This document shows, in pieces, positions 777-24,063 of a stretch of DNA of 28,330 nucleotides. The notes under the pieces are model-generated. The model had not been told where the DNA came from. It ran no database searches and was given only the letters and a program-made list of their open reading frames with translations. Both the position numbers and the translations under genes were made by a program. The DNA is taken from the IMG/VR virus record IMGVR_UViG_3300028925_003959, one strand, 5' to 3'. Each line of letters begins with the position of its first letter. The stretch's first letter is position 1. The DNA is from a virus.

Positions 777-777
777 T

Positions 778-791
778 ATAAACAAGTTTAT
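778..791. promoter_or_regulatory. Perfect 6-2-6 palindrome ATAAAC-AA-GTTTAT abutting the -33 element (possible operator)
   Basis: Read directly: ataaac is the reverse complement of gtttat. Its position next to the candidate early promoter is the only functional hint. Confidence 0.3.
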
Positions 792-829
792 TTACAAAGT
801 TATTAACAATTAGAAGGGTATATACTAAA

Positions 830-6439: not shown

Positions 6440-6441
6440 AC

Positions 6442-6453
6442 TATATAATAGAA
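6442..6453 (-). promoter_or_regulatory. Conserved late motif copy 5: TTCTATTATATA (minus strand), 2 nt upstream of ATG 6439
   Basis: Exact 12-mer shared with 8802..8813, 10895..10906, 19914..19925 and 21611..21622. It lies just downstream of the terminator at 6505..6538. Confidence 0.55.
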
Positions 6454-6504
6454 AAGTGTTGTTTTTATTTGGTTCTTAACTGTTTTAAAGCGTTCTAAAG
6501 AGTA

Positions 6505-6538
6505 TATAAAAGAAAAGGGTAACAATTAAGCTACCCTT
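6505..6538 (-). terminator. Rho-independent terminator after the tail tube gene
   Basis: The 7-bp stem AAGGGTA (6515..6521) pairs with TACCCTT (6532..6538) around a 10-nt loop. On the minus-strand RNA the hairpin is followed by UUCUUUUAUAUA. Confidence 0.6.
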
Positions 6539-6565
6539 CTCTAAAATATAATAAAAATGAAAGAA

Positions 6566-7129
6566 TTAAGATTCTACTATTGTACCCATTGTGAATGCTG
6601 CATTGTCAAAAGGTTCTGAATCATAATCTGCAACCATTGGAAAAGGCATTGCTTCCATTCCGTCAAAAGTCAAAGTGTAACCACCTCTATCACCCCAAGC
6701 TGCACCTGAATCCATAGTTCCTGCGTTAAGCTCCATTCCGTTTACTGTTCCTAAAGCTACGATTGTATCGTGTCCGTTAGCAAGAGTTGCGTTTAATTGA
6801 GCAAAGCAAATTACTTTAGTTTGAGCTAAAAGTTTAACTTGGTTTTGGTCTTCTTTTGTTAATTTATTAAGTACAAGGTTTAAAGTTGGAGTATAAAATA
6901 TAGTTCCGTTTTCTTTACTTCCTGTAATTGTTTCAGACAAAGAAGCTGTACCTAAAGGCATAGCATATCTATAAAGAACGTCAGTTCCCATTTCAATATC
7001 TGTTACTTCTCCTGCTGTTTGTGGTATAGATGTTACTTGGTCGTAAACTGCGAAATATACGTATTTGATTCCACCGCTTACACGATTGCAATCTAACCCT
7101 CTACCTTTTGTAAGTGCTGTACAAGCCAT
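6566..7129 (-). CDS. Putative major tail (tube) protein
   Basis: 187 aa, beta-rich. The N-terminal GLDCNRVSGGIKYVYFA and C-terminal GGYTLTFDGME segments resemble siphovirus major tail proteins as I recall them. It lies immediately after the capsid gene. Not verified by search. Confidence 0.45.
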   Translation of the reverse strand: MACTALTKGRGLDCNRVSGGIKYVYFAVYDQVTSIPQTAGEVTDIEMGTDVLYRYAMPLGTASLSETITGSKENGTIFYTPTLNLVLNKLTKEDQNQVKLLAQTKVICFAQLNATLANGHDTIVALGTVNGMELNAGTMDSGAAWGDRGGYTLTFDGMEAMPFPMVADYDSEPFDNAAFTMGTIVES

Positions 7130-7153
7130 TGTGTTTGTTTTTTTTTAGGTTAA

Positions 7154-7183
7154 GGGAGTGAAGGGTTTTACCCCCTCACTTCC
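7154..7183 (-). other. GC-rich stem-loop directly after the major capsid gene (RNA stability, attenuation or processing element)
   Basis: GGGAGTGAAGGG (7154..7165) pairs with CCCCTCACTTCC (7172..7183): 12 positions with one wobble and one mismatch, and a 6-nt loop. No U tract follows on the minus strand; the sequence there is CUUAACCUAAAAAAAAA. Confidence 0.5.
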
Positions 7184-7196
7184 GTTTATTTATTAA

Positions 7197-8111
7197 TTAC
7201 GATACAAATACTACATCTGCACCAATTCCAACTTGAGTTCCTCCCGTGAATCTTGCGATTAAACGAGTATTCAAACTTCCTACGTGAGATTGGTCAAGTA
7301 ATTGAATGTTAGTTGAGTCTGAAATTAAATCAGTCCCAAAGAATAAGTTAGACTTTTCAGCACAAACTAACTTATCGTCTTCTGCACCGTTGCATACTGC
7401 AAGTTTTATTCCTTCAAAAACTGCATCATAATCACCATTCATTGAATAAGCATTTACATAACCTAAAGCTGAAATAGCTGAGATGTATAATCTGTAAGAC
7501 TTTGGACTCATATAGATGTAAAGGTCTTCTTTCGTATAAACGTTAGAAGGAATAGCTGCTGTTGCTGCTTGTAAGTTAGCGATAATGTTTGCTGCTGTGA
7601 ACGCTGTTCCTGCTCCACCGTCATTAGCTACATCAATTACTGTTGCATCTACTACAAGTCTTCCTACTGCTGCTGTAGTCAATCCTGTAAAAGAACCTCC
7701 TGTTGCATCATTTCCTGACCATATAGCGTTTTCAACTCCTTGAGAAATTCTACCTGCTAAGTGAGAAATTAAGTAGTCGTCAAATGATGCCGGTGCCGGT
7801 GCTCCTGCTCCTGCTCTCATCTCTAAACTTTCCCAAGAATCCAATAAGTTTTTTGAACAAATTTCCATATTAACTTGTAGGTCTTTTGGAGTGATGATTG
7901 CTTCAGTAAGAACTAATGTTCCTGCTGTTGTGAAATCGCACGTGCTGTCCGCCATCTCTGAACCGGATTCCATTTTCTGAATTACTGCTTTATACTTCAC
8001 GTTTTCCATTGAAGTCATAAAGTTTAAAGAGTTAGCTTCTTTTAAAGCTGCTGATACGTAAAAGCCGGCTGCTTTCCCCGCGAACGTGCTAGTTACTGTT
8101 GGTAATGCCAT
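7197..8111 (-). CDS. Major capsid protein (HK97-fold type)
   Basis: 304 aa, preceded by an acidic scaffold-like gene. Composition and length are typical of HK97-like capsid proteins. It follows the XkdF-like protease and scaffold block. Confidence 0.7.
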   Translation of the reverse strand: MALPTVTSTFAGKAAGFYVSAALKEANSLNFMTSMENVKYKAVIQKMESGSEMADSTCDFTTAGTLVLTEAIITPKDLQVNMEICSKNLLDSWESLEMRAGAGAPAPASFDDYLISHLAGRISQGVENAIWSGNDATGGSFTGLTTAAVGRLVVDATVIDVANDGGAGTAFTAANIIANLQAATAAIPSNVYTKEDLYIYMSPKSYRLYISAISALGYVNAYSMNGDYDAVFEGIKLAVCNGAEDDKLVCAEKSNLFFGTDLISDSTNIQLLDQSHVGSLNTRLIARFTGGTQVGIGADVVFVS

Positions 8112-8125
8112 AATTGTTTATTTTT

Positions 8126-8770
8126 TTAGTTATTTAAGTTATATAAGAATCGCTCTTGTGAGGTCATCATTTTTAATTGTTTCTTGCTAAGAGATGTTTT
8201 CTCAGAGCTAAATTTATTTGTATCTAAAGGTGCTGATGCAGGTTGTGCTGCTAACTCAGTCTTTAGTCTATCGTTTTCTGCTTGTAAGTCTTCCATTGAG
8301 AACTCAACTACTTCTGTAGTCTTAATAGATTTTGGAGTTGTACCTCTAACCTCTACATCTTCTTCAACTGACATTTCTTCAACTTCTTCCTCTACTTCTT
8401 TTTCTTCTCCTTTAAGACTAGCTACTGCATCTTCTAAGTTTTGGATTCTTTTCTCCATACCTGCCCAATCAGCAACGTCAGCTTCTTCTGCCATTTCAGC
8501 TTCTTCTTCAACGTCTTCTGCACCAAAAACTTCATCAACAATACCTTCTTCAGAAACTGAAAAAGATTCTCCTGATTCTAATACGTAATTTCCAACAGGT
8601 AAAAGCATAACAGAACCATCTTCAGTAAGAACTGAGATATCTACTCCTGCAATTAATTCGTCAGCTGTAGAAGTGATAATTGTACCATCTTCTAATTTAG
8701 CTTGAAAAGCCATTAAGACTTCTTCTTTGTCAAGTCCAAGTGCTACTAATATTTGATTTTTTAAATCCAT
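8126..8770 (-). CDS. Scaffolding protein candidate (highly acidic)
   Basis: Glu/Asp-rich core (EDVEEEAEMAEEADV, EEKEVEEEVEEMSVEEDVEV) plus coiled-coil-like segments (RIQNLEDAVASLK, ENDRLKTELA). It lies immediately upstream of the capsid gene. Confidence 0.6.
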   Translation of the reverse strand: MDLKNQILVALGLDKEEVLMAFQAKLEDGTIITSTADELIAGVDISVLTEDGSVMLLPVGNYVLESGESFSVSEEGIVDEVFGAEDVEEEAEMAEEADVADWAGMEKRIQNLEDAVASLKGEEKEVEEEVEEMSVEEDVEVRGTTPKSIKTTEVVEFSMEDLQAENDRLKTELAAQPASAPLDTNKFSSEKTSLSKKQLKMMTSQERFLYNLNN

Positions 8771-8801
8771 AATCTTTTTATAGTTTTGTTTTTAGTTCTG
8801 T

Positions 8802-8813
8802 TATATAATAGAA
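8802..8813 (-). promoter_or_regulatory. Conserved late motif copy 4: TTCTATTATATA, 31 nt upstream of ATG 8770
   Basis: Exact 12-mer in the divergent intergenic region 8771..8873. Confidence 0.55.
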
Positions 8814-8839
8814 TAGTTATTGTTCTGTTTGGTTTTTGT

Positions 8840-8869
8840 TTTGTTATTTGATTTATTTTGTTATATTTG
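8840..8869 (+). promoter_or_regulatory. Host-type (TTTG / TAnnTTTG) promoter for the lone plus-strand ORF
   Basis: TATATTTG at 8862..8869 fits TAnnTTTG exactly. TTTG at 8840..8843 lies 18 nt upstream. The ATG at 8874 follows 4 nt after the box and a second ATG is at 8883. Confidence 0.5.
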
Positions 8870-8873
8870 CACT

Positions 8874-9080
8874 ATGAAAAAAATGTATTTAGTAGGAGAA
8901 GTAAACCAACAGCAGACTAATTGGGATTTTTGCGGTATTTATTCTACTGAAAAACTTGCCCTTAAAAGGTGTGTAACTGAAAATCATTTTTTAGCTAGAG
9001 TTGAATTAGATTATTATGTGCCTATTGAAAAGAGCAAGTTCAAGTATTCCTACTATCCTTTGCTAGAAGATAAGCCTTAA
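8874..9080 (+). CDS. Only plus-strand gene: small hypothetical protein (68 aa, MKKMYLVGEVNQQQTNWDF...), moron-like
   Basis: The track ORF 8820..9080 begins at a TTG, and I trim it to the first ATG (8874). It has its own promoter-like signal. Its stop (9078..9080) is 2 nt from the stop (9083..9085) of the convergent minus-strand gene. No family recognised. Confidence 0.5.
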   Translation: MKKMYLVGEVNQQQTNWDFCGIYSTEKLALKRCVTENHFLARVELDYYVPIEKSKFKYSYYPLLEDKP

Positions 9081-9082
9081 GT

Positions 9083-9517
9083 TTATTTTATTTGTGAAGC
9101 TTTAGATACTATCTTCATTCTAGCATCTTCTAATTGTTTTCTTACTTTTAATCCTTCAGAATAAAATTTATTAGCAGAAGCAATACTTTTTTGACTTGAA
9201 GGATTAATACCTAATTCTTTTAAAGCTTTCTCCATTTTAGAAACTATATCCCCTAGTTCAACCACAACTTTATTTGCTGTCCTTTCGTGTATTTTCATAG
9301 TTGCAACTGCACCATCTACACTACCTAATATTGATAATAGATTTTTACTTTCCTTTACAGATTCAGCACTTTCCTTTATTACTTGTTCTACTTTTTTTCT
9401 TGCTTTCTCTACATCATCACCTAATCCCAACTCAACCTTTTCAGACTTCAGTTCAGTTTTAGATTCTTGCATTAGCTTATTTAAAGCACTTATTATTTGT
9501 TTGTTCGTTGGTTTCAT
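9083..9517 (-). CDS. Coiled-coil head-module protein, paralog of 10414..10872 and of the C-terminus of 9527..10414
   Basis: Shared landmarks are KVELGLGDDVEKA and ALKELGINPS. Compare RIELGLANDIKST / SKELGIDVND in 10414..10872 and KVDLSINDDINKP / AKELGVSSD in the C-terminus of 9527..10414. Confidence 0.6.
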   Translation of the reverse strand: MKPTNKQIISALNKLMQESKTELKSEKVELGLGDDVEKARKKVEQVIKESAESVKESKNLLSILGSVDGAVATMKIHERTANKVVVELGDIVSKMEKALKELGINPSSQKSIASANKFYSEGLKVRKQLEDARMKIVSKASQIK

Positions 9518-9526
9518 ATTATACGT

Positions 9527-10414
9527 TTAAAGTAATTTTTGTATTTGTTTTACTATATTAGAAGACTCCTTAGCTCCTGTTTCTGCTTCTGTTAATTTTG
9601 AAGAAAATAATTTAACTATATCTGAACTAACTCCTAATTCTTTAGCTTTTGTAACTCCTATTGCAGCTTCTTTTGCAGCTTTATTGAAATCACTAGCAGC
9701 ACTATCAGCTACACCTGCTGCATCTCTTAGTCCGTTTTTAATATTAGCAAAAGCAGTTCTAGCTTTTTCTAGTGGCTTATTTATGTCGTCATTAATACTT
9801 AAATCAACCTTCTGAACACTTAGCAACTCTTTTATTGCATTCCTTACTTCTTCGTCTGTAAATTCTTTCTTCTTGTTCATTTGTTCAAATTTATTAGTAA
9901 AATAGCCTTCTATTGAAAGACCTTTAAGTTCTCCGTTTTTTATCTTAGACCAAATTTCATCATTTGAAATAGATAACTTAACCATCCAAGTTCCCACAGG
10001 AAGCGAATAGCCATATAAAGTAGACTTATCTAATTTAGTGTCTTCTATAATCCAAGACTCAACTGTAAGTATTCCTGAAACTCTATCTTGATGTTGGTAT
10101 GTCGCCTTATGGTGATTGTTATGCTTTAAATACAATTCAGAAGCCTTCTGTACTGTTTCTTTTGAAAAGTAAACATAGTAGTCCGAATCGGTGTTTGGGT
10201 CGTGTCTAAAGATTTGCTTGTTAGGAATCAAAGCAGGAGAAATTAACATTCTCTTTTCTTCATCAACCTTTGCAAATGTTAAGTTGTTTTTCTCTTTACC
10301 AAAGAATACAAAGTCTTGCTCAATAGCAGGACTAGTTACTAAGCTAATAGCATCAATAGCTAATTCTTCAGAATCATCTGCAATTACAAGTTCTACTATT
10401 TTAGTTGCTTTCAT
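9527..10414 (-). CDS. XkdF-like putative prohead protease with a C-terminal coiled-coil module
   Basis: Segment-by-segment resemblance to B. subtilis PBSX XkdF as I recall it: ISLVTSPAIEQDFVFFGK, EKRMLISPALIPN, TVESWIIE and GTWMVKLSISNDEIWSKIKNGELKGLSIEG. Confidence 0.7.
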   Translation of the reverse strand: MKATKIVELVIADDSEELAIDAISLVTSPAIEQDFVFFGKEKNNLTFAKVDEEKRMLISPALIPNKQIFRHDPNTDSDYYVYFSKETVQKASELYLKHNNHHKATYQHQDRVSGILTVESWIIEDTKLDKSTLYGYSLPVGTWMVKLSISNDEIWSKIKNGELKGLSIEGYFTNKFEQMNKKKEFTDEEVRNAIKELLSVQKVDLSINDDINKPLEKARTAFANIKNGLRDAAGVADSAASDFNKAAKEAAIGVTKAKELGVSSDIVKLFSSKLTEAETGAKESSNIVKQIQKLL

Positions 10415-10872
10415 TATAGGTTAGCTTGTAGTTTTGCTATAGCACCTAAAGTATCATCAGCAGCAGCCTTATATCCATCAGCATTATCTACTAAATCTTC
10501 TAGATTTCGATAACCAGGAATATCATTAACATCTATACCTAATTCTTTAGATAATTTCTCTGCTGTTCTCAATAAGTCTATAGCTTTATTTTCAAGGCCA
10601 TCTACAGGCTTGAATTTACCTTCTAAGTCATTATAATTTCTATCAAGAGCTTTAGATGCTAAATCCAATTCAGTTCTTACTTCCTCAACTATATCGGCAG
10701 CTTCTTTTTGAGAAGCATTTAGTTCAGTTAAAGCTTTTTCTAAAGCATCCTCTGTTGATTTTATATCATTTGCTAGCCCTAATTCAATTCTTGTAACTTT
10801 ATTTAAATTAAATTTTGCAACTGCTTCTGTATATTCTTTGTAGGTTTTTCCGAATGGTGTTGGCTTGTTCAT
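10414..10872 (-). CDS. Coiled-coil head-module protein (paralog family, see 9083..9517)
   Basis: 152 aa, helical and acidic. It carries the RIELGLANDIKST and LSKELGIDVND landmarks. ATG at 10870..10872, 22 nt downstream of the conserved 12-mer. Confidence 0.6.
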   Translation of the reverse strand: MNKPTPFGKTYKEYTEAVAKFNLNKVTRIELGLANDIKSTEDALEKALTELNASQKEAADIVEEVRTELDLASKALDRNYNDLEGKFKPVDGLENKAIDLLRTAEKLSKELGIDVNDIPGYRNLEDLVDNADGYKAAADDTLGAIAKLQANL

Positions 10873-10894
10873 AGTTTTTATTTAAGGTTTGTAA

Positions 10895-10906
10895 TATATA
10901 ATAGAA
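10895..10906 (-). promoter_or_regulatory. Conserved late motif copy 3: TTCTATTATATA, 22 nt upstream of ATG 10872
   Basis: Exact 12-mer in the 54-nt gap after the tape-measure-like gene. Confidence 0.55.
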
Positions 10907-10926
10907 ATTAAGTTCCTTTGTTTGAT

Positions 10927-12576
10927 TTATATTGTTGCCCTTCTTCTAATGTTTGCTAATTGATTCTGACTGTTACTCATCTCGTCAGTTACTACATAAG
11001 CCTTAGTAGCTTCAGGGGCTACTCCTCCTGATATATCAAAAGCTCCTGACATCATTTGAGGTGATGGTGTTTGTGGTGCTACTGGTGCAGAACCTCCTCC
11101 TCCTTCACCTCCTGGAACGTCTGTTGCTAATATAGTCTTTACATTATTAAGTCCTGCTGCTATTACTGCTGCTCCTGTTACGAATCCTACAGTACCACCT
11201 TGAGCAAAGGCTTTATTAGCTCCTACATAAGTATCTATTACGGCACTTGCTACGGCTAAAGCTTTGTTATCTCCTGCTAATGCACTTAATGCTCCTGCAA
11301 GTCCTGAGAACGCTTCTAACTGAGCATTCATATTAGCCTTAACTACTTCAGTCTTTTGTTTCTCATATTGTTTAGTAATAGCTAGAGTTTTCACTCCTGC
11401 CTTATCAGCCATTGCTACTTTTAAGTCATAAGCGTCCTCAAGTTCTTGTAATTCTTTTTGTAACCCTGAAAGACCTTCTGCTCTTATTCCCTTTTGTGTT
11501 TCAGCTAATTCTTTTTCTAAACTTACTTGATTTGTTTTTTGTTCTGACAACTGACCTGTAATAGTTTCTTCAAGTTCAAGTTGTGCATTCTGAGCTTCCA
11601 TTAAAGCTAACCTATTTTCATCATTTCCGTTCTGTTGTACTGCTAAAGCTGCTGCTGTTACTTGTTTCTGTATTTGGTCAGACTGAAGTTTCTGTTGTTC
11701 TTCTAATGATTTTTTTAAGTCTTTATTGGCTTGTATCCTTTCAGCAAAAGTCTTTGTTTCATCATCTCTAATTTGTCTAAGTAATTCTGCCTCTCTTAGT
11801 TTTTCAGCGTTTAACTTTGCAAATTCTGCTTGAGCAAATTTAGCCGCTTTAACTGCTGCTGTTGTAGCCTCTGCTTGTTCATAATTAGCTTTTATTGAAA
11901 TCTTACTTATACCCTCAGAAGCCTTTTCATATATATCTCCTATCTCACCTATTGCATCCCCTATATTGTTTACAATATCTTTTCCTGCATCTACAGCTGC
12001 TATTGCTACTTCTGCTAAGTTCGTTTTAGTTAATTTTATTTCTTCTCTAAGTTCTGCAATTTTACCTTTATCACCACCACCCAATGCACTATCTTCCCAA
12101 GCTAAAGTTAATTGTTGTATTCCTAATTTAAGTCCGTAAAAAGCAAGCTTCAAAGGAGTTAATGCAAGCGTAACTATTCCAGACAAAACTTTTCCTAGTC
12201 CATCAAATCGGTCTGAGCTTTCCGTTACCCAAGAAACAACGTCTGTTAATACTGTAACAACTTGATTGAAAGTAGTAGAAATAGTAGACATTACTGTTTC
12301 CATTAAGTCCATAGCTTTTTGATTCCTTTCAACTGCTTCTTTAAGTGCTACAAATAAAGCAATAATCAATCCTATTCCTGCTGCCTTTAAAGCTAATCCT
12401 ACTCCTTTAATTGCAGTACCCATTCCTTTAAAACCTTTTGAAGCTGTCTTAGTTGCTCCATCAACTTTTTTAGTTTCATCAGCTAATTTTCCTACTGACT
12501 TAGTAGCACTATCAATACCTTTTGATACCTCGCCAATATTTGACTTAACTTCCATTTCTAATACTTCCTTTGCCAT
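10927..12576 (-). CDS. Tape-measure-like protein (or internal/ejection protein)
   Basis: 549 aa with long Ala/Lys/Glu/Gln coiled-coil stretches and two hydrophobic segments (GVGLALKAAGIGLIIALFVAL, LSGIVTLALTPLKLAFYGL). The C-terminus is Gly-rich (GGEGGGGSAPVAPQ). Confidence 0.55.
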   Translation of the reverse strand: MAKEVLEMEVKSNIGEVSKGIDSATKSVGKLADETKKVDGATKTASKGFKGMGTAIKGVGLALKAAGIGLIIALFVALKEAVERNQKAMDLMETVMSTISTTFNQVVTVLTDVVSWVTESSDRFDGLGKVLSGIVTLALTPLKLAFYGLKLGIQQLTLAWEDSALGGGDKGKIAELREEIKLTKTNLAEVAIAAVDAGKDIVNNIGDAIGEIGDIYEKASEGISKISIKANYEQAEATTAAVKAAKFAQAEFAKLNAEKLREAELLRQIRDDETKTFAERIQANKDLKKSLEEQQKLQSDQIQKQVTAAALAVQQNGNDENRLALMEAQNAQLELEETITGQLSEQKTNQVSLEKELAETQKGIRAEGLSGLQKELQELEDAYDLKVAMADKAGVKTLAITKQYEKQKTEVVKANMNAQLEAFSGLAGALSALAGDNKALAVASAVIDTYVGANKAFAQGGTVGFVTGAAVIAAGLNNVKTILATDVPGGEGGGGSAPVAPQTPSPQMMSGAFDISGGVAPEATKAYVVTDEMSNSQNQLANIRRRATI

Positions 12577-12587
12577 AGTTTTATTTT

Positions 12588-13445: not shown

Positions 13446-16132
13446 TATGGTATAAGTATAAATTCAACTGTTGCTAAGTCGTTAGGCTTGTAGTCTATTT
13501 TGTTCACTCTAAAGACTCTATTTTTAATAAAGACTCTATCGTTAAACTTGAACGTATTAATATCAGCAGGACTAAGATTTACTTTAAGAGTCATAGTCCT
13601 AGTATTTGGATTGTAAAGCTCTGAGTAGTAAGGAAGCCAATATAAATTGAACAAGTTATTTACTGTAGAAACTTGATTACCTAGTAGCTGACATTCGCCA
13701 AAGTGGAAATCTCTTGCTGCTGAAATTGATAATCCTGAATCTTTAATATGACTAAACTGTAAGTAGTTATATTCGTTAGAACTTACTACACCGTTCTGTT
13801 CAGGTATATAATAAGAAGTTCCTGTAGATTTTATTCCGTTATTATACATAATTCTAGGACTATTTTCAAACCCTTCTTCAATATCATTATTTATAGCATA
13901 AATAGCAGGAGTTATAAATGAAGGATATTGACTCATTAAAGCTTTAACTATTGTAGCTGCAAAAGGTTCTGCAATTATTTCTTTTTCACCATCCAATATG
14001 TTAAATTCATTACCTGAATTAAACTTCTTACTTCCGTATAAATGACCGCCTACTTGATTCTTATAATTATTAAAAGCATAATCATCATCATCTTCAACAA
14101 ACTTAAATATTGTCTTTTTATTAAGGTCTGTTAAAGGTGTTAATTTTATTTCTGAAACATCTATCTTATCAGTCCAATCGTGCTGAATTCCTCTATTAGC
14201 TAAAGTTGCTCCTGCTGTTGCTGTTGGTATAAATACATCAGTATAAGGTTCTATTAAAATATTGTTAGGATTATCTTCATCTACTAAAGTTACTAAGTTA
14301 AACATAGTAATAAGACCTTTTAAGAAATCCCATTGTCCTAGTTCTCCTCTTAGGTTTTGTAGTAGTGAATCAGTTGTTGCTAATCCCTGACCTATACTAG
14401 CTATTATATTATCATTGATATAAGGATATTGCCAATAAGAATTTAATGAATCTGCCTTATATTCTACTTGTAGCGTGTCCCCTTGTTGTAAAAGTACATT
14501 TTGAGAAATATCTAATGATACATATGCAGTACTATTACTATAAATAGAACCATACACATTTAAAACATTTCCTGCACTATCTTTGTGTGTTAGTCTAATT
14601 GTAGCACCCCACCCTGAAACTTGACCAATAGCTACGTGAGTTTCTAAATTATATTGCGTATTATTATTTAGTGCTTCAAATCTATGATTTACACTATCAT
14701 AATTTAAGTCTGCTGAGAAATTACTAACATCATTTAATTGAAAATTTTGGTATGTAGTTGTAGCATAAATAACAGGTGGTACAAATGACGCTAAATTATA
14801 ATATCCAATAGTTGGAGTTGTACTAGTGTCATTAGCACCCCAATTAAAGTCCATAAATAACTTCTTGAAGTCTGTAGTATCAAAGAAAGCTGATTCATAA
14901 GTGAAGTCTGTTGCTTCAAATATTCTATCTACTAAATACTTTATATTAATGAAAGGTCTGAATATTTGCTCTAAAGATGTGTACTGAGGATTGCCATCTG
15001 TAGGTCCTGCACCTCCTGAAGGGTTATCTGCTACAATAATCTGATGATCCCAATCAACAAATGGATATTTAACTGTGCTATAAGCATCTCTAAATCCTGA
15101 AGTACTTGGATTTGTATAAGCTATTCCTGTTGTTGCATCATTCCAACTATTCTTAATTTGTGTTCTATTATATTCGTGTTCAATTTCTGTAAAGTCTAAA
15201 TCTCTAAATACTCTATCTTGTAAGGTATCTGCTAAAGCTATGACCTCTGAATATAAATTCACATTATAACTTATCTCGCCTTCTTTATCTGTTACGTCTA
15301 GCATTCTTAAATAGCCTTCAAATAGAATAAAGCCATCTTGTTTTAAAACGCATTTAGTCTTTTTATAAGGGTTAAAGATTAGTCCGTCATTTTCCCTTGT
15401 TACTTCAAATATAGCATTGAATATTTTATTGTTTCTTTTAGTAGAAGGTAAGTTAAAAGCCTTTGAATACGACTGTACTTTCTCAGCTACGTTCTTAAAG
15501 TCATCTACACTAAGAGTCAAAGGTAAGTCTTCATCTTCATAAAGGTCGCATATTATTTGTCCATCTTCTAGTAATTGAATAGCTCCAGAAGGAGAAATTC
15601 CTGCTGCCGTTACTCCTATTGTATTTATTTGAATAAGATTTGCAATAGATATATATTTAGAGTCTATTAATATAGTATCTTGTGTTGAGTTTGCTGTAAA
15701 TTGTAAGGTCTGAGTTCCTGAAGATAACGAGTGTGTACTTTGTAAAGTCGTTCCTGAAAATACTAATAGCCTTGCTGCACCAACTAATACACCTACATTT
15801 ACTTCTACATCATAAACAGCACCAATAGTAAGATTTGAAAGTTTCTGAATGATTCCGTTTTGTTCTCCTGCTCCTGAAGCTATCCTTAAAAAACTTCCTG
15901 TTTCATATACGTTTGTACTATCTGTATCATAATAACGATACCAAGTATTTACCGCCATTATTGAATTGTAGTAGCTAATTGCTCCCTGTGCTAATGTAGT
16001 AGCTATTGCAGTATTTGCTGAAGCGTTTACATTATTAAAGTTTATACCATCTACAAAAAATTGATTAGAAGTATTACTAGAGTTTGTTAAACCGTCATAG
16101 CTCTGAGGATATACTATTAATTGAACACTCAT
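13445..16132 (-). CDS. Large tail/baseplate protein (895 aa), possible tail-associated or host-recognition protein
   Basis: It is the largest ORF, beta-rich and Asn/Thr/Ser-rich, and is coupled by TAATG overlaps to both neighbours. Function is inferred from size and neighbourhood only. Confidence 0.35.
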   Translation of the reverse strand: MSVQLIVYPQSYDGLTNSSNTSNQFFVDGINFNNVNASANTAIATTLAQGAISYYNSIMAVNTWYRYYDTDSTNVYETGSFLRIASGAGEQNGIIQKLSNLTIGAVYDVEVNVGVLVGAARLLVFSGTTLQSTHSLSSGTQTLQFTANSTQDTILIDSKYISIANLIQINTIGVTAAGISPSGAIQLLEDGQIICDLYEDEDLPLTLSVDDFKNVAEKVQSYSKAFNLPSTKRNNKIFNAIFEVTRENDGLIFNPYKKTKCVLKQDGFILFEGYLRMLDVTDKEGEISYNVNLYSEVIALADTLQDRVFRDLDFTEIEHEYNRTQIKNSWNDATTGIAYTNPSTSGFRDAYSTVKYPFVDWDHQIIVADNPSGGAGPTDGNPQYTSLEQIFRPFINIKYLVDRIFEATDFTYESAFFDTTDFKKLFMDFNWGANDTSTTPTIGYYNLASFVPPVIYATTTYQNFQLNDVSNFSADLNYDSVNHRFEALNNNTQYNLETHVAIGQVSGWGATIRLTHKDSAGNVLNVYGSIYSNSTAYVSLDISQNVLLQQGDTLQVEYKADSLNSYWQYPYINDNIIASIGQGLATTDSLLQNLRGELGQWDFLKGLITMFNLVTLVDEDNPNNILIEPYTDVFIPTATAGATLANRGIQHDWTDKIDVSEIKLTPLTDLNKKTIFKFVEDDDDYAFNNYKNQVGGHLYGSKKFNSGNEFNILDGEKEIIAEPFAATIVKALMSQYPSFITPAIYAINNDIEEGFENSPRIMYNNGIKSTGTSYYIPEQNGVVSSNEYNYLQFSHIKDSGLSISAARDFHFGECQLLGNQVSTVNNLFNLYWLPYYSELYNPNTRTMTLKVNLSPADINTFKFNDRVFIKNRVFRVNKIDYKPNDLATVEFILIP

Positions 16133-17532
16133 TATACTGCTTGGGTTCTAAGTGTCTTTGACTTTTCTACTTCAAAAGTGTACTGCATAAGCTTGTCATT
16201 AGCTACTGTCTTTTTAGTATAGTTAGAAGTTGTAAGTCTTACAGGTATTACATATTGATTCAATGCAGAATCTGTTGCATCATCTTTAAAGCCTTCTAAG
16301 ATATAAACTTCAGGACTATTTATAAGTTCTTCAAACCACTCGGACTCGGATTCACTTACAAAGTCTGTATTCATAGTTATTTTCTCAGTAGCGTTTACTC
16401 TAAAGGATTTTTTACCACCTTTAAAGCTATCTAGTCTGTAAGACTTTTCATTCCAACTACCTGCAAGCTGTTGGTATGTACTTCCTTTTGTTGAGATAGT
16501 CTTACTAGACTTCATTTTAAAAGTGTAGTAATCCCAACCACCCCATTGATTAAGCCAAGTAAGTCTTACAGACTCAAATCCTTTTTGATTAGGACAGTTT
16601 ATATTAATAGTTATTCTATCAGAAATAGTTTGTCCTGTACTATTATGGGCTGATATTACATAGTAGCTTAAAGTAGGAATAGCAGCATTGAAGTCGCTAC
16701 TCCAATTCCTTAAATTTGCAGGAAAGCAACCAAGAAACATCATTTGTCTATTTATATGAGCACTCCAAACATCAAATCCACCATCTGTATCTAAGTTTTT
16801 TATAAGTATTGTTGAACCTATAGGTACTCCATCTGAATCATACATATTTACTTTGAACTGAATAAGAGTAGTGTATGGTACATTGCTTGATAATGGTGTT
16901 GATAAAAAGGGTAAAGTTCCATAGTCTTCTATATTAGCATATTGAGTTCTTGGTGCATTAGTTAAAAACCTTTGTCCTGAAGCTCCACCTCCTAACTGAA
17001 AAAGTTTAGTATTAAAGCCAAAATTATTACCTGATAAAATTATCTCATCAGTGTATTTTAAGTAACCATTGAATACTTTGTACAAGTCAGAGTTATCTTG
17101 AGTTCCATCAACAACTAAATCTCCTGATGCGTCTATGTATTCTGTAGTAAATTTTACAACTAAGTATCTTATTACTTCTGTATTCCTTGCATACTTATCA
17201 ATTAAATGTATTCCGAAAGGCACGTAAGTAGAATATATAGTCTTAAAAGCTGACCACTTATAAGCCTTATTCTGAGCATTAACAAAACTTTCAATTATAG
17301 GTCTGAAGTCAAACATTCCAACTCCTGCGTTGTTTGGAGTAGTCTTGAAAGTACCTACTACATCATTTACAGTAGATGGATTCGGAGGAGTACCATCACT
17401 TATATGAACTTCAGCTATAAACTTAACCCCTGTAAAAGTAGATACTATCGGAGTATTACCTACTGTAAACATTACTTCTTGCCCTACAGGTAAAGTATCG
17501 TATAAAGGATGCTGTGTTATTGTTGTTGCCAT
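16132..17532 (-). CDS. Tail/baseplate structural protein (466 aa)
   Basis: Long beta-rich ORF in the coupled structural block. No motif recognised. Confidence 0.3.
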   Translation of the reverse strand: MATTITQHPLYDTLPVGQEVMFTVGNTPIVSTFTGVKFIAEVHISDGTPPNPSTVNDVVGTFKTTPNNAGVGMFDFRPIIESFVNAQNKAYKWSAFKTIYSTYVPFGIHLIDKYARNTEVIRYLVVKFTTEYIDASGDLVVDGTQDNSDLYKVFNGYLKYTDEIILSGNNFGFNTKLFQLGGGASGQRFLTNAPRTQYANIEDYGTLPFLSTPLSSNVPYTTLIQFKVNMYDSDGVPIGSTILIKNLDTDGGFDVWSAHINRQMMFLGCFPANLRNWSSDFNAAIPTLSYYVISAHNSTGQTISDRITININCPNQKGFESVRLTWLNQWGGWDYYTFKMKSSKTISTKGSTYQQLAGSWNEKSYRLDSFKGGKKSFRVNATEKITMNTDFVSESESEWFEELINSPEVYILEGFKDDATDSALNQYVIPVRLTTSNYTKKTVANDKLMQYTFEVEKSKTLRTQAV

Positions 17533-18068
17533 TATTTAATTGTTGTTATGCTATTAATTATATCTTCTTTTACACTGCCTAGTAAGTCTTTTCCGAACTG
17601 CTTTAAACCAAGCCCTAAAGGTTTTTGAAAGAAGCTTATCCCTTGTATTCCTTTACGCCCTATACTTCTAGCAATTAAAAAGGTTATTGATTTTCTACTC
17701 ATAAACTTTCCGCTTGCATCTCTTGGAGCTATTCCTTTTCTAACAACCCACTTATCTAAAGCCTTACTTGGTGGCTGTGAGTGTCCTTTACTATTTTTAT
17801 AACTATAAGGAGTTTTAATTGCTTTCCCTTTATAGTCTTTAAATGTTCTTTTGGTCTTAGTTCCTGAAACTCCTTTGTCTACAAATTGTCCATAACTTGA
17901 CATATAGAATTGTACTGTAAAACCGTCTGCTGAAGTAATTACTTTAAACGAGATGGAATCTTCTAACTTAGTCTTATCTCCTTTTTTATAATTAAGAGTA
18001 GTTTTAGACTGAGCAACCACTTGCCGTCCAAAGCTTTCTAAGTACCTTTCTATATTGTCAGTTTTCAC
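17532..18068 (-). CDS. Basic virion protein (178 aa), possible neck/tail-completion protein
   Basis: Lys/Arg-rich ORF coupled by a 1-nt overlap on both sides. The function is only a positional guess. Confidence 0.3.
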   Translation of the reverse strand: MKTDNIERYLESFGRQVVAQSKTTLNYKKGDKTKLEDSISFKVITSADGFTVQFYMSSYGQFVDKGVSGTKTKRTFKDYKGKAIKTPYSYKNSKGHSQPPSKALDKWVVRKGIAPRDASGKFMSRKSITFLIARSIGRKGIQGISFFQKPLGLGLKQFGKDLLGSVKEDIINSITTIK

Positions 18069-18514
18069 TACTCTACTCCTACGAATACTTCAACTCTAGC
18101 TGTAACAGCTGTTGTTGGTTGTACTTGTAAAGAAGCTAAGTCTAACATAGTTCCAAAAGTAGGAGCGCCAACTTCACCTAAAGCAATTACATCTCCTGAA
18201 TAAAGAATGTGTGAGCCTCCTGCTCTTATAGTTACAGTATAACTTGAAGTAGTAGTCTGAACTGCTAACTCAATGTCTACAGCCGTTTCTAAGTTTGTTA
18301 CTCTAACGTATTTAGTCCTATCAACATCAATAGCTCCTGGAGAAGTTGAAGGTAATGTATCAAAGACCGCTACAGTAGTTACTACACTTGCTGTGCAGGT
18401 TACTATCCTTTCAAAGACGTCATTAATACCTGTTGTTGTTACTGAATTAACAGAGCCTCTTAAACTTCCGTTAAGTGTTACTGTTTCTGAAATTGTTGTT
18501 ACTAAGTCTGCCAT
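18068..18514 (-). CDS. Beta-rich structural protein (148 aa)
   Basis: Thr/Val-rich ORF in the structural block. No motif recognised. Confidence 0.3.
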   Translation of the reverse strand: MADLVTTISETVTLNGSLRGSVNSVTTTGINDVFERIVTCTASVVTTVAVFDTLPSTSPGAIDVDRTKYVRVTNLETAVDIELAVQTTTSSYTVTIRAGGSHILYSGDVIALGEVGAPTFGTMLDLASLQVQPTTAVTARVEVFVGVE

Positions 18515-18518
18515 AATT

Positions 18519-18590
18519 TTATAAATTAATTGTTATTTTAAATTTTTTCCATCCTATCATTATTTCTAGTTTCCAAATCTTAAACTTCAT
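18519..18590 (-). CDS. Candidate micro-ORF (23 aa, MKFKIWKLEIMIGWKKFKITINL)
   Basis: My own translation. The ATG (18588..18590) overlaps the upstream TAA (18590..18592) as TAATG, the coupling used at many real junctions here. Its stop (18519..18521) lies 4 nt before the next ATG (18514), so it exactly fills the 75-nt gap. Confidence 0.25.
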   Translation of the reverse strand: MKFKIWKLEIMIGWKKFKITINL

Positions 18591-19141
18591 TAATACCCTG
18601 CTCCATTTGAACTGACAGGAATATCGCAAGTCTGAAAGTCGTTCTGTACTAATACTCCAATATTAAATACCCAACCACAACAAAGATTGTCAAACCTTTC
18701 AGAGAACGGCTCTATAGTGAATTGGTCTTGCGTAAAGTATATCGGTTGATTAATATCATTCACCCCTTCTAAAGACTGCCTAGAACTATGCCTTAGCATT
18801 CCTATAAAGTCAGTACATACTTGAAGTGTTTCATTTAAGACATCTTGTTCGTTATCTAAAGTCTTTACTAACTTAGTGAAATCAGCTGAAGCATTGTTTG
18901 TAGTCCATTCAGTTCTTTCTGTTACCATATCCATAATGAAGATTTGGAAGTTAAAGACAAGCTGACTGTCTCCAGTAGTTACATTTGTAGGGTTGATATG
19001 AAGTAAAGGAAACTTAGTATTCTTATCTCCTAAATCTATCTGCCAAATATCCCCTACAGAAGTTGTACTTATTTGCTCGTGGTATTCCCCTAGTCTTAAA
19101 AGAGTATTAACGACATTATTATAGCTTTTATTTTTAACCAT
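18590..19141 (-). CDS. Structural protein (183 aa), possible neck/connector component
   Basis: ORF with ATG at 19139..19141. The -1 frame ORF from upstream ends 8 nt inside it. No motif recognised. Confidence 0.3.
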   Translation of the reverse strand: MVKNKSYNNVVNTLLRLGEYHEQISTTSVGDIWQIDLGDKNTKFPLLHINPTNVTTGDSQLVFNFQIFIMDMVTERTEWTTNNASADFTKLVKTLDNEQDVLNETLQVCTDFIGMLRHSSRQSLEGVNDINQPIYFTQDQFTIEPFSERFDNLCCGWVFNIGVLVQNDFQTCDIPVSSNGAGY

Positions 19142-19909
19142 TTCTTTTTACTTTATTTTGTGAGTTCAAATCTGTTTCATAACTTAACCAAGTCAGGCAC
19201 TCTAACAAGTTGAGCTTTGTAATACTTTCTAATTTACTAATATCTTCACCGCACAACCTGTGCATTACTCCGAACCATCCCCACTTACTGGCAAAGTCTT
19301 CACTAGCTATTGCACTTTCGTTTCCTTCAGCCGAGTTATCGAAAATGATAGCAAAGTCTCGGACAATACCTTCCCTAAAGTGTAAAAAAAAACTAAAGCA
19401 CTTTGAACTTGTTCTGCCGACATCTGTTTCATTTCTTCTGCTCTGAGCCGAATATCACCATCATACGGTTCAATAATATATAGTGTATCACTTTTCTTTA
19501 TTTTGATAGGTCTATAAAGTACCGACATCAATTCAGGAAGGTTCTTATCTATTCCATTCTTTATAAACTGCTCAATGTCTGCATACTCTCCTAATGTAAT
19601 TTCTGAAAGGTCAGGATGAAAAGCGTATTCAACTTCATTGATAGTTATAATCCTTTTAAGCTTAGTGTCTTGCTTAGCTTGAAGTTCTCCTATCTTTGAC
19701 ATAATGACTGCTACGTCTGATAAAGCTAGTTCCTTAACCAACCGTTTAGGAATGTCAGATAGTGCTGCTAATGTTGCTTCAGCTTCTTCAGTCTTAGTTC
19801 CTGTTTCAAAGTCAATAATTTTTAACCAAGTTTCTAATGTAACATCACTCCAATTGTTAATTAGACTGAACGATTCTACTTTACCATCTTTTTTAATTTT
19901 GACTTTCAT
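19134..19909 (-). CDS. Predicted -1 frameshift fusion product (about 258 aa): residues 1-175 of the 200-aa ORF plus 83 aa from the -1 frame
   Basis: The -1 frame is open from 19454 to the TAA at 19134..19136, with no ATG before 19265. It covers the otherwise gene-free gap 19142..19306 and translates to a normal-looking sequence: LHFREGIVRDFAIIFDNSAEGNESAIASEDFASKWGWFGVMHRLCGEDISKLESITKLNLLECLTWLSYETDLNSQNKVKRNG. Confidence 0.45.
19307..19909 (-). CDS. Zero-frame product (200 aa) of a candidate frameshift pair; tail-assembly-chaperone-like by architecture
   Basis: ATG at 19907..19909, 4 nt after the conserved 12-mer. It contains GTT TTT TTT TAC (a U9 run) 25 codons before its TAG. Confidence 0.6.
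   Translation of the reverse strand: MKVKIKKDGKVESFSLINNWSDVTLETWLKIIDFETGTKTEEAEATLAALSDIPKRLVKELALSDVAVIMSKIGELQAKQDTKLKRIITINEVEYAFHPDLSEITLGEYADIEQFIKNGIDKNLPELMSVLYRPIKIKKSDTLYIIEPYDGDIRLRAEEMKQMSAEQVQSALVFFYTLGKVLSETLLSFSITRLKETKVQ
19384..19392 (-). other. U9 slippery run (heptamer U_UUU_UUU in the zero frame)
   Basis: The plus strand has nine consecutive A at 19384..19392. The zero frame reads GTT TTT TTT TAC. Confidence 0.5.
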
Positions 19910-19913
19910 ACAC

Positions 19914-19925
19914 TATATAATAGAA
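19914..19925 (-). promoter_or_regulatory. Conserved late motif copy 2: TTCTATTATATA, 4 nt upstream of ATG 19909
   Basis: Exact 12-mer in the 45-nt gap after TerL. Confidence 0.55.
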
Positions 19926-19954
19926 ATAAGTTGTTTTTAGTTTAACGATTTTTT

Positions 19955-21265
19955 TTACTGCACATAATACCTTCCCACGTTCTTATCTATCTCATAATAC
20001 ATTCGCATTGCTAAAGCGTCAGCATAATCAGGAGAACGCCCTAGAATAGCCTTAACAGTATCTTTAGGAATTATCTGTAGTTTGTTATCTTTATCTGCAT
20101 CTTTCATTCTTACTTGTTCTAGTTCTTCTGTTATTGTATTCTTAGTATTAACGTCTGAACAACTTATACCAATTTGTCCTTTGTTTATTTCATCTGCTAA
20201 CTTGTAATAACATTGAGTCTTTAAGTTCTGATAGTTCTCTCCTTTTAAAGCTCTAGCATTATTTGTAAATCCTTGACAACGTAAGTAATCTTTAACTCCA
20301 CCACCAACTCCATCCTCATCTACTATGATATTCCTTAAAGCTACTTGATTTTCTTGTTGTAGTTTCTTAATCTCGTCCACAACATCATTTACAGCCGATT
20401 TAAGGATAGTTCTCACATAAGTAAGGTGTAAGCCTTCCCATAACATTATAACTGTCTTATCGCTTCCAAATCGTGCAACATCACAACTGATATACTTTTC
20501 TCCTGTTATTCCTTTTTGACTAAACATTCCCATAATAGAATTGTAATCTATAAGACTGTCATCAGTTGCATCATATTCCCAATTACCGAATAGAAGTCTT
20601 TGCTTACTTAGTTCATCTAATTGAGATAGCTGAGTTTCATAGTGCTTAGAGATGTAGTTGTTATCCACCACTAAAGACTGAATAAACTTTCTGTAAGGTT
20701 TTATTGTATTGTCTTGTGCAGGTCTGTAATACTCTGAATAAACCCAATTCTTAGCAGGGTTGCAAGTCATAAGCATCTTAGGTATTAAGCCGTTCTCATC
20801 TAACTTATATCTTAGTCTTGATGCTACTACGTTCTTAGCCTTTTCAGTAATCTGATTAGCCTCATCTATGAAAGCTCCTGTTATTTCTAGTGAACCTAGA
20901 CTATCAAAGTTTCTGTCTGAAGGGTATAAGAACAAGTCCTTTAGTATTATCTCAGAACCATTGTAAAAGGTTATCACATTACTTGAACCATTAAACGTGT
21001 AGTCTTTAATAGCTTTTAAGTTCCACTCGGTGCATACTTCAAAGAATGTATTTAGTGTAGTCTTTTTTAAAGCATCTAACTTTGACCTTCCCATTAAGTA
21101 CCTAGTCTTTGGATATGTTAGGCACATAGTAATTAAGTAGCTACAACCTACCCAAGACTTACCTCCTCCTGCTGCTCCTCCAAATAAAACCTCTTTAGTC
21201 TTATTGTCTAATAGATACTTTAAGCACTCTTTTTGTTTAGGTGTAAATTCAGGATTAATCTCCAA
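19955..21265 (-). CDS. terL: Terminase large subunit
   Basis: Walker A FGGAAGGGKSW and Walker B-like AFIDEANQ, with a C-terminal nuclease-type region (VDEDGVGGG). 436 aa. It overlaps the upstream TerS gene by 11 nt. Confidence 0.9.
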   Translation of the reverse strand: MEINPEFTPKQKECLKYLLDNKTKEVLFGGAAGGGKSWVGCSYLITMCLTYPKTRYLMGRSKLDALKKTTLNTFFEVCTEWNLKAIKDYTFNGSSNVITFYNGSEIILKDLFLYPSDRNFDSLGSLEITGAFIDEANQITEKAKNVVASRLRYKLDENGLIPKMLMTCNPAKNWVYSEYYRPAQDNTIKPYRKFIQSLVVDNNYISKHYETQLSQLDELSKQRLLFGNWEYDATDDSLIDYNSIMGMFSQKGITGEKYISCDVARFGSDKTVIMLWEGLHLTYVRTILKSAVNDVVDEIKKLQQENQVALRNIIVDEDGVGGGVKDYLRCQGFTNNARALKGENYQNLKTQCYYKLADEINKGQIGISCSDVNTKNTITEELEQVRMKDADKDNKLQIIPKDTVKAILGRSPDYADALAMRMYYEIDKNVGRYYVQ

Positions 21266-21608
21266 GATTTATATTTATTTTAATTCTTTCATCTCCTGAA
21301 GTTAAATCTATTTCTTGCTTCTCATTATAACCACGCTTACGTCCTCTTGTTCTTAGGAAGAAAGTTGTAGCTGTTGTATTACCTTCCTTGATTTGTTTCT
21401 TTAGACTTGTTTCAGCAAAGTCAATAAACTTACTATCAATATTATCTACTGCGTTCTTGTATTCTTCATCTTCATTCATCCAAGCATAATGTCGGCTTCT
21501 TGTTACCTCTGCTTTCTCACAAGCTTCAGTTACTATACCTAGTGAAGTTTCTAGTGCAGCTAGTAGCTTCTTTTTACCCTCCTGTGTCCTCTTTTGTTCT
21601 GTTTCCAT
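21255..21608 (-). CDS. terS: Terminase small subunit candidate (HTH)
   Basis: 117 aa, immediately upstream of and overlapping TerL. It has an HTH-like segment LGIVTEACEKAEVTRSRHYAWMNEDEEYKNAV. Confidence 0.6.
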   Translation of the reverse strand: METEQKRTQEGKKKLLAALETSLGIVTEACEKAEVTRSRHYAWMNEDEEYKNAVDNIDSKFIDFAETSLKKQIKEGNTTATTFFLRTRGRKRGYNEKQEIDLTSGDERIKININLGD

Positions 21609-21610
21609 AA

Positions 21611-21622
21611 TATATAATAGAA
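21611..21622 (-). promoter_or_regulatory. Conserved late motif copy 1: TTCTATTATATA, 2 nt upstream of the TerS ATG 21608
   Basis: The whole 15-nt gap between the NinB stop and the TerS start is TTTCTATTATATATT. Confidence 0.55.
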
Positions 21623-21623
21623 A

Positions 21624-22007
21624 TTATTCATATTCATTTGGCAGCATTAGTCTGATACCTAGTTCAGTCATTGCCCATATTCTTATTTGGTCTGCATATA
21701 TCTCAAAGGCTTTGCTATCCATTCTTGCTGTACTCTTAACTACTTGTACTCCTATTACCTTATCATTTCGTTCTATGCTTTCCCATTGAGTGGAGAACTT
21801 TAATTTTAATAGATCGTGAATTTCGTCAGGGTAGTAGCCTAGTTCGTTAGATAAGACTTGTACGATACAACTCCAATAATAGTTATTCTGCATATTGCTT
21901 CTTGTATTTCTTTGTTTCTTTACCTCTACTAAGTAGTCGTTCCCTAATTCCTTTAAGTAGTGTATTAGGTTGTGCTTGTCCTTATCGCATTTGATTACGA
22001 ACTTCAC
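21624..22007 (-). CDS. ninB: NinB/Orf-family recombination mediator
   Basis: KKQRNTRSNMQNNYYWSCIVQVL...VKSTARMDSKAFEIYADQIRIW parallels lambda NinB ERNRSLDQNRKLWACLGDV...GQSTSRMRVGEFAELLELIQAF. The start codon is GTG (22005..22007), overlapping the upstream TAG. Confidence 0.7.
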   Translation of the reverse strand: MKFVIKCDKDKHNLIHYLKELGNDYLVEVKKQRNTRSNMQNNYYWSCIVQVLSNELGYYPDEIHDLLKLKFSTQWESIERNDKVIGVQVVKSTARMDSKAFEIYADQIRIWAMTELGIRLMLPNEYE

Positions 22008-24042: not shown

Positions 24043-24063
24043 ATGCCAAAGATAACCAAAATA

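Follow-up and report, generated by a model that had tools for sequence, protein, structure and literature searches.

In the virus record IMGVR_UViG_3300028925_003959 from IMG/VR, a stretch of 28,330 nucleotides (nt) that was analysed as a whole and is called the window here, the 12-mer TTCTATTATATA stands in front of five blocks of late genes. Our analysis suggests that these five copies are probably the -10-like halves of five bipartite late promoters, predicted to be read by a sigma factor of the extracytoplasmic function (ECF) type that the phage itself encodes. An initial annotation, made from the bare sequence, had proposed a late promoter set tied to a phage sigma factor, and every sequence-level test that we ran supported this proposal, which we regard as likely.

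The 12-mer stands before five late gene blocks

The window contained five exact copies of TTCTATTATATA, all on the minus (coding) strand, at 21611-21622, 19914-19925, 10895-10906, 8802-8813 and 6442-6453, exactly where the initial annotation had placed them. The number expected from dinucleotide-preserving shuffles was 0.07, and five copies were reached in 0/100 shuffles. All five were intergenic and, as had been claimed, in coding orientation just upstream of gene starts. The distance from the end of the box to the ATG ranged from 2 to 31 nt, with 2 nt for TerS (ATG at 21608), 4 nt for the open reading frame (ORF) starting at 19909, 22 nt for ORF 10872, 31 nt for ORF 8770 and 2 nt for the LamG ORF (6439). 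The extension reported for four of the five copies was recovered as a further T directly before the 12-mer.

Relatives of the sigma gene, TerL and portal were taken from IMG/VR (marine viral contigs), and a bipartite weight matrix covering -22 to +16 was built from their sites. With this matrix, the five window sites scored 24-43 bits and everything else scored 0.5 bits or less. The window holds exactly five sites of the bipartite element, and the early region is free of copies, as had been noted before. The sites, with the terminator that adjoins the last of them, are listed below.

21608..21641, minus strand: P1, candidate promoter before TerS/TerL; upstream block CCAAATGAA at 21633-21641, box at 21611-21622; 43.5 bits
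21608, minus strand: predicted start of P1, the A of the TerS ATG
19911..19944, minus strand: P2, candidate promoter before ORF 19307-19909 and a tail-like block of about 9 kb; upstream block TAAACTAAA at 19936-19944, box at 19914-19925; 40.0 bits
near 19911, minus strand: predicted start of P2, with the ATG at 19909
10892..10925, minus strand: P3, candidate promoter before ORF 10414-10872; upstream block TCAAACAAA at 10917-10925, box at 10895-10906; 28.9 bits
9527-10414 and 9083-9517, minus strand: protease-like ORF and a further ORF, also covered by the P3 unit
near 10892, minus strand: predicted start of P3, leader about 20 nt
8799..8832, minus strand: P4, candidate promoter before ORF 8126-8770 and the capsid-like ORF 7197-8111; upstream block CCAAACAGA at 8824-8832, box at 8802-8813; 24.1 bits
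near 8799, minus strand: predicted start of P4, leader about 29 nt
6439..6472, minus strand: P5, candidate promoter before the LamG-domain ORF 5288-6439 and portal 3364-5283; upstream block CCAAATAAA at 6464-6472, box at 6442-6453; 41.6 bits
6439, minus strand: predicted start of P5, the A of the ATG
6511..6542, minus strand: intrinsic terminator closing the P4 unit just upstream of P5; 13-bp stem with 5 G-C pairs and a T-rich tail

The last row bears out an earlier remark that a terminator lies next to the fifth copy. A one-mismatch copy, TTCTATTATAAA, was found inside the sigma gene (23441-23452, minus strand) with TTGACA 18 nt before it and no upstream block. It is probably due to chance, because it fell outside the 14 best matrix matches on its strand (below -14.9 bits). 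A scan of the window for sigma-70-type consensus sequences gave 39 and 63 matches, against shuffle expectations of 53 and 60.

The element has two conserved blocks and a predicted start signature

In 181 non-identical contexts, positions -19 to -11, counted from the 12-mer, formed another conserved block, at fixed spacing and with the consensus y-M-A-A-M-T-R-A-A; about 100% of the contexts had AA at -17/-16, and 90% had T at -14. About 10 variable bases lie between this block and the box. The whole element consists of a -35-like block MAAMTRAA (e.g. CCAAATAA, TAAACTAA), a spacer and the near-invariant box (T)TCTATTATATA, and when TATTAT is taken as the -10 hexamer, the upstream block lies 23 nt upstream, counted from start to start. 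Two conserved blocks at fixed spacing, for which about 16-18 bp between -35-like and -10-like hexamers is typical, are the mark of a sigma-dependent bipartite promoter, and we infer promoter function from this arrangement. The AAC that had been seen 2-4 nt upstream of the 12-mer was only weakly conserved, the strongly conserved positions being those of the block at -19 to -11 instead. The presence of this block also speaks against the earlier comparison with T4-type promoters that have a -10 element only.

Of the contexts without an ATG at index 14 (n=122), 97% had a purine at index 14 and 87% had a pyrimidine at index 13, and after de-duplication (n=70) the values were 97% and 86%. This pyrimidine-purine step, 2-3 nt past the box, was read as a predicted Y(-1)R(+1) transcription start signature, and the start could fall anywhere within index 11 to 16. 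Counted from a start at index 14, the box would occupy -14 to -3 and the upstream block roughly -33 to -25, an arrangement that matches promoters of the sigma-70 family. At three of the five window sites, and at most orthologous sites, only 2-4 nt separated the box from the ATG, so that many late mRNAs are predicted to be leaderless or to carry a 2-nt leader.

The element is conserved at orthologous sites in relatives

In the first 160 relative loci (1.57 Mb), the exact 12-mer occurred 235 times in forward and 8 times in reverse orientation, and in 239 loci (2.28 Mb) the counts were 299 and 9. These 239 loci also held 74 forward copies with one mismatch, 25 of which differed in the first base only. 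Copies at orthologous positions were found before homologs of ORF 19909 (100), TerS (61), the LamG ORF (44), ORF 8770 (17), the protease gene (7) and ORF 10872 (5). The motif is conserved strand-specifically at orthologous sites in related phages, where the initial annotation had suggested looking for it, and divergent sigma clades carry variant boxes.

The gap between box and start codon differed from site to site. At the TerS site, 59 of the 61 relatives had a 2-nt gap to the ATG, while the 17 copies at the ORF 8770 site had gaps of 20-38 nt. At the LamG sites, the start codon and first codons were conserved (e.g. ATGATACAAG) and the gap was 2-16 nt, and in most relatives of this class the upstream block came directly after the T-run of a terminator. 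In a scan of the viral collection with a 17-mer that holds the box in its 2-nt-gap form, at least 96 matches lay in contigs of the same family, 61 of them with a strict upstream block; among the matches listed, 21 lay in unrelated contigs, and 0/21 had the upstream block.

Of 296 box copies in relatives, 57 preceded genes absent from the window, so the predicted late promoters appear to go along with variable accessory cassettes. Recurrent starts of such genes behind the box were ATGAAACAACAAGTTAAG and ATGAAACTAAAAATCAAC. As a separate observation, GCAAATATA in reverse orientation (read as TATATTTGC on the opposite strand) was seen in relatives a short way upstream of the ORF-19909 promoter. 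This suggests that opposite-strand cassettes were inserted beside late promoters.

The phage encodes a predicted divergent ECF-type sigma factor

The gene of the proposed reader is listed here.

23120..23686, minus strand: predicted divergent ECF-type sigma gene, 188 amino acids (aa); sigma2-like part about 2-95, linker 96-128, sigma4 129-187

Structure prediction of the sigma family was run with database proteins. The AlphaFold2 (AF2) model showed two helical domains (2-95 and 129-187) joined by a disordered linker, with a predicted local distance difference test score (pLDDT) of 70. Together with Foldseek, it gave the fold of a group 4 (ECF) sigma factor, with sigma2, sigma4 and a linker and with neither sigma1.1 nor sigma3. 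The top 19 Foldseek matches and nearly all others listed were sigma-70-family proteins, mostly of the ECF type (SigL, SigH, RpoE, AlgU, SigW, SigK), with alignments of about 180-200 columns and probabilities of up to 1.0. Region 4 of sigmaE bound to DNA superposed on the model with a root-mean-square deviation of 1.2 A. The NCBIfam ECF model TIGR02937 matched 20/20 diverse family members over nearly the full length (residues 10-186 against 9-165 of the 165 profile positions) at E values of 1.6e-8 to 1.9e-11, and the next-best models were Bacteroidetes ECF subfamilies. By its fold and these full-length, sub-threshold profile matches, the 188-aa protein is taken as a divergent ECF-type sigma factor, in keeping with the sigma-70/ECF-like factor that the initial annotation had recognised.

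The protein was assigned to PHROG 1740, its family counts over 2,000 proteins in public data, and it is the sole recognisable transcription factor in the early region, where several small ORFs are without assignment. A profile search of the family against PDB sequences gave only FliA, as a marginal match (E=0.09), and in hhalign to an approximate sequence of E. coli sigmaE only sigma4 was aligned and the sigma2 part was not. Residues 74-77 had been considered as a sigmaE-type specificity loop; this idea was dropped, as hhalign gave no mapping of 64-87 onto region 2.4 or the loop. A tblastn search of the 188-aa protein against 50,697 cultured phage records (E<=1e-3) returned no match.

Box and sigma gene are linked in position and covary

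In 149 non-redundant loci, the 5 kb upstream of the sigma gene contained 1 box copy in 508 kb, and the 5 kb downstream contained 119 copies in 565 kb. The first copy lay 1-2.5 kb past the sigma gene.

Covariation of box and sigma was studied at the P2 (ORF-19909) site by ortholog-anchored inspection. The variant box TTATATTATATA was found at 7 loci, TTACATTATATA at 4 loci, and [A/T/C]CCCTTTATATA or TCCCTTTCTATT at 5 loci with sigma proteins 32-43% identical. At these last 5 loci the upstream block was changed too, to TAAACGATT or TAAACGAAA. Boxes of the TTCTATATAT and ATATATAC types occurred in single lineages. The box types clustered on the sigma distance tree, in separate sigma clades.

The reference set consisted of 51 sigmas with the canonical box (53-100% identity to the window protein), in which 54 columns were at least 98% invariant. 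Among these columns, 6 of the 11 inside residues 66-88 were changed in the variant clades, compared with 6 of the 43 outside (Fisher p=0.009). The substitutions of the variant clades were L68I, S74C, R76N/K, S77N, K82T and Y87N, and single lineages carried G64A, A65T and T73R. A substitution at sigma residues 64-77, at positions at least 98% invariant in the reference set, was present in six of the seven lineages with internal box changes. Two further lineages (L017 and L147), whose box differs in its last base only, had no change at 64-77 and fit the pattern. The covariation is supportive of a link between the phage sigma and the box, which the sigma would read, and is not decisive.

A probable host-type promoter precedes the sigma operon

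Two places in the early region carry candidate promoters of the host type, that is, with the -7 box TAnnTTTG of the Bacteroidota primary sigma factor (sigma-A).

24047..24054, minus strand: host-type -7 box TATCTTTG, 4 nt before the ATG (24042) of ORF 23686-24042
745..802, minus strand: candidate host-type early promoter region, with TACTTTTG at 745-752 and TAACTTTG at 795-802

ORF 23686-24042 overlaps the start of the sigma gene. In 73 of 87 non-redundant relatives, the gene in front of sigma had TAnnTTTG 3-5 nt ahead of its ATG, and TATCTTTG at 24047-24054 is the probable promoter of the sigma operon. In Flavobacterium psychrophilum the TAnnTTTG box spans -12 to -5 (PMC9723704), so transcription of the sigma operon is predicted to begin on the ATG at 24042. 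This would show that the phage family uses a leaderless layout with host-type promoters as well.

The region 745..802 sits in a 193-nt gap before the early operon, which runs from 718 to 61 and then from 28292 to 21624. Over the window as a whole, TAnnTTTG occurred at chance frequency (39 found, 40.4 expected). Of the two host-type boxes named in the initial annotation, the one at 745-752 stands as a candidate on the coding strand; the other, TATATTTG at 8862-8869, turned out to lie on the plus strand, where it ends 4 nt before the ATG of the plus-strand ORF 8874-9080. The late motif itself was rightly described as different from the host type, as TAnnTTTG was absent from the box and flanks at all five sites.

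These results are consistent with the following cascade. Host RNA polymerase with the Bacteroidota primary sigma would transcribe the early operon, including a unit of two genes, the second of them the phage sigma gene, with the conserved host-type promoter directly before it. The 188-aa ECF-type sigma would then redirect the host core polymerase to the five late promoters, by which packaging (TerS/TerL), the tail-like block, the two head blocks and the LamG/portal block would be switched on. The conserved host-type promoter before the sigma operon fits an order from host sigma-A to phage sigma to late units, and the late timing of the five units is predicted. A fuller version may also be considered, in which the late programme runs wholly through this private sigma, transcripts start on or 2 nt before the start codon and are systematically leaderless, and the box and residues 64-87 co-evolve clade by clade; we put it forward tentatively and think it rather less than even in probability.

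Several observations weigh against reading by the phage sigma or against parts of the scheme. The 188-aa protein scored 34.4 bits with TIGR02937, below the curated cut-off of 42.9, and 22.7 with Pfam r4_2, where the cut-off is 25.7; the r4 match was also weak, no Pfam region-2 match was obtained, and the structure model is of moderate confidence by its pLDDT. The box is unlike known ECF -10 motifs (GTC for sigmaE, PMC6648896; a CGT box in Flavobacterium, PMC9723704). Shared ancestry confounds the covariation, the segment 66-88 was picked after inspection of the data, and one variant lineage (L156) was unchanged at residues 64-77. In a mapped flavobacterium, only 5.5% of mRNAs are leaderless and the median 5' untranslated region is 24 nt (PMC9723704), so that late transcripts mostly without leaders would be unusual for the phylum. 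Finally, the host is uncultured and was assigned by inference.

Other explanations of the repeated element

The element could instead be a late promoter read by a host sigma (primary or ECF), possibly with a small phage activator, while the 188-aa protein does something else. The anatomy of the promoter is silent on which sigma reads the box, several small early ORFs have no known function, and the sigma assignment is sub-threshold, all of which would suit such a reader. What makes it unlikely in our view is that the box does not match TAnnTTTG, which the same phage family conserves elsewhere (PMC9723704), and that box variants track substitutions in the phage sigma; the clade-specific boxes would be left without an explanation unless the host of each clade has a different sigma.

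The closeness of the box to the ATG, 2-4 nt at most sites, could also point to an element that acts in the RNA at start codons, either as an operator or enhancer of translation or as a site of RNase processing, and Bacteroidota are reported to be without Shine-Dalgarno sequences and to use A/U-rich context (PMC6847099). A promoter is favoured over a translation or RNA element on several grounds. Across orthologous sites, the box lies anywhere from 2 to 38 nt away from a start codon that is itself conserved. The upstream block follows the terminator T-run in most relatives of the LamG class, and there is no significant RNA structure at the five sites (81-nt regions, z -0.7 to +1.7) and no conserved fold. 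In addition, the fixed position of the upstream block, at a distance of about 30 nt, is what the footprint of a sigma factor would give, and the element stands only at the heads of gene blocks and not before every late gene. An RNA-level role therefore seems quite improbable.

The repeats might also be DNA sites for another process, such as module recombination, packaging or replication, with their position at block boundaries a by-product. The 57 of 296 copies before variable genes without a window homolog would then mark cassette-exchange junctions, although shared promoters would be expected as exchange points anyway. The copies have strictly a single orientation, are always immediately 5' of an ORF and show the start-site signature, and recombination between five direct repeats would delete essential genes; we give this explanation very little credence.

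The phage might also encode an RNA polymerase of its own (single-subunit or YonO-like) that reads the element. Near-invariant promoters are typical of such enzymes (here 299 exact and 74 one-mismatch copies), and several large late ORFs (895, 549 and 466 aa) are without family assignment. This is very improbable, as Pfam and PHROG scans found no polymerase domain in any ORF, the large unassigned ORFs lie within the late structural block downstream of the boxes, and T7-type enzymes use contiguous promoters, in contrast to the two blocks and variable spacer seen here.

Comparison of the predicted sigma-box system with known systems

The initial annotation had held the design to be without precedent, which is not the case: phiEco32/7-11, SPO1 and T4 all have phage sigmas with dedicated promoters. 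The closest functional analogue of the predicted system appears to be the phiEco32/7-11 group, in which the phage sigma (gp36) likewise redirects the host core polymerase to short, highly conserved boxes ending in TATA, of which TAATGTATA is the phiEco32 consensus and tgtgatgttata an example of the late 12-mers in 7-11; early genes in that group are transcribed from host-type promoters, and structural genes from the phage boxes (PMC4331800). The two differ in the sequence of the box, in the conserved -35-like block that the window element has in addition, and in their hosts, Enterobacteria as against, probably, Flavobacteriia. Sequence homology to the 188-aa protein was not detected by the tblastn search of cultured phage records described above, which did not include a sensitive profile comparison to gp36.

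The two-domain sigma2-linker-sigma4 layout, the length of about 190 aa and the bipartite promoter agree with ECF (group 4) sigmas, by fold and, below the curated thresholds, by profile. E. coli sigmaE reads GGAACTT and GTC, and a swappable sigma2 loop sets its -10 specificity (PMC6648896). The phage element follows the same logic with different sequences. The window differs in its 12-bp A/T-rich -10-like box, which is neither GTC nor CGT, in scores below the curated thresholds, and in that no anti-sigma partner was identified in the phage. The -35 elements of ECF sigmas have an AAC core, which the AAAC/AAAT of the phage block recalls.

The late promoters of T4 (TATAAATA) resemble the element in having an A/T-rich late box near the start and a sigma-like phage reader, gp55. 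A -35 element is absent from the T4 late promoters, and gp55, which has nothing beyond a region-2-like part, depends on gp33 and the sliding clamp; the element described here has a conserved upstream block, and the 188-aa protein has a sigma4 domain.

The RinA/ArpU/Ltr activators of Gram-positive siphoviruses are also small regulators encoded shortly upstream of terS that switch on the packaging and morphogenesis operon (PMC3152322). They act on one late operon promoter, in contrast to the five dispersed promoters predicted in the window genome. The RinA and ArpU models of NCBIfam were absent from the 11 families matched by the first member of the sigma family and from the 25 families that matched most widely among the 20 members. 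These activators would be analogous to the phage sigma in position, not homologous to it.

Compared with the primary-sigma promoters of Bacteroidota (-33 TTTG / -7 TAnnTTTG), which the phage family appears to use for the sigma operon, the late box shares the leaderless layout, with a predicted start that falls on the ATG, and differs in not matching TAnnTTTG. In the literature, our coverage of which is incomplete, we found neither a description of the motif nor one of flavobacterial or Bacteroidetes phages with a sigma system of their own. A phage sigma with dedicated late promoters would be a familiar timing switch by analogy, here in a phage group without a described case.

Two points give the predicted system its interest, the leaderless late mRNAs and the co-varying series of sigmas and boxes in an abundant uncultured marine phage family. 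The former would bear on translation start in a phylum without Shine-Dalgarno sequences. The latter, if true, would be a natural series of orthogonal sigma/promoter pairs arising from clade-to-clade co-evolution, and Bacteroidota, with their limited genetic tools, could gain orthogonal expression parts from such clade-specific pairs. For this widespread family, the analysis also provides a predicted and testable transcription map, in which a single sigma serves five late units and is itself expressed from one host-type promoter before its operon.

Genome layout and host

The ends of the window share an exact 99-nt overlap (1-99 and 28232-28330), and the window is a complete, circularly assembled phage genome of 28,231 bp. 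Because of this circular assembly, the early genes at 718-61 run straight on into 28292-21624, and ORF 61-573 abuts ORF 27744-28292 over the junction with a TAATG overlap. The ORFs of at least 50 aa that tile the window are all on the minus strand; the sole opposite-strand gene is the 68-aa ORF 8874-9080, without a family match, which occupies an apparent 312-nt 'gap' adjoining P4.

The gene layout was obtained from PHROG and Pfam scans of the window ORFs. The early block encodes Erf, SSB, a replication initiator, a DnaC-like loader, a thymidylate-synthase-like protein, NinG, the sigma-like protein and NinB. It is followed by TerS, TerL and a block of about 9 kb of large ORFs without family assignment, which is taken to be tail-like, then by the protease-like gene, the capsid-like gene, the LamG-domain protein and portal, and last by an Mre11-type exonuclease. 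This late gene order (3364-21608) is unusual, as the head genes come after the tail-like block and portal lies about 15 kb from the terminase. An Rfam scan of the window gave no match.

A megablast search of 25 kb against cultured phages gave no nucleotide match. TerL was 54.5% identical to that of Flavobacterium phage 11b and 52.6% to that of Cellulophaga phage phi10:1, followed by Bacteroides and Polaribacter phages. In phage 11b, the closest cultured relative by TerL, neither the box nor a sigma homolog was found. The host probably belongs to the Flavobacteriia, judging from the TerL relatives and the conserved TAnnTTTG boxes.

A scan of bacterial genomes yielded no host or prophage information, the matches being whole phage-sized contigs in metagenome-assembled genomes (MAGs) of inconsistent taxonomy. 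Five of these (L303-L307) were whole genomes of the same phage family, 29-36 kb long, in public MAGs labelled Methanobacteriota, Pseudooceanicola, Arcobacteraceae and Campylobacteraceae, and are almost certainly binning contamination. One further relative, L240 (JGI 3300075516 contig, 62,776 bp), had a sigma homolog 76% identical to the window protein and kept the gene order at about twice the usual genome size; it could be a concatemer assembly or a larger relative.

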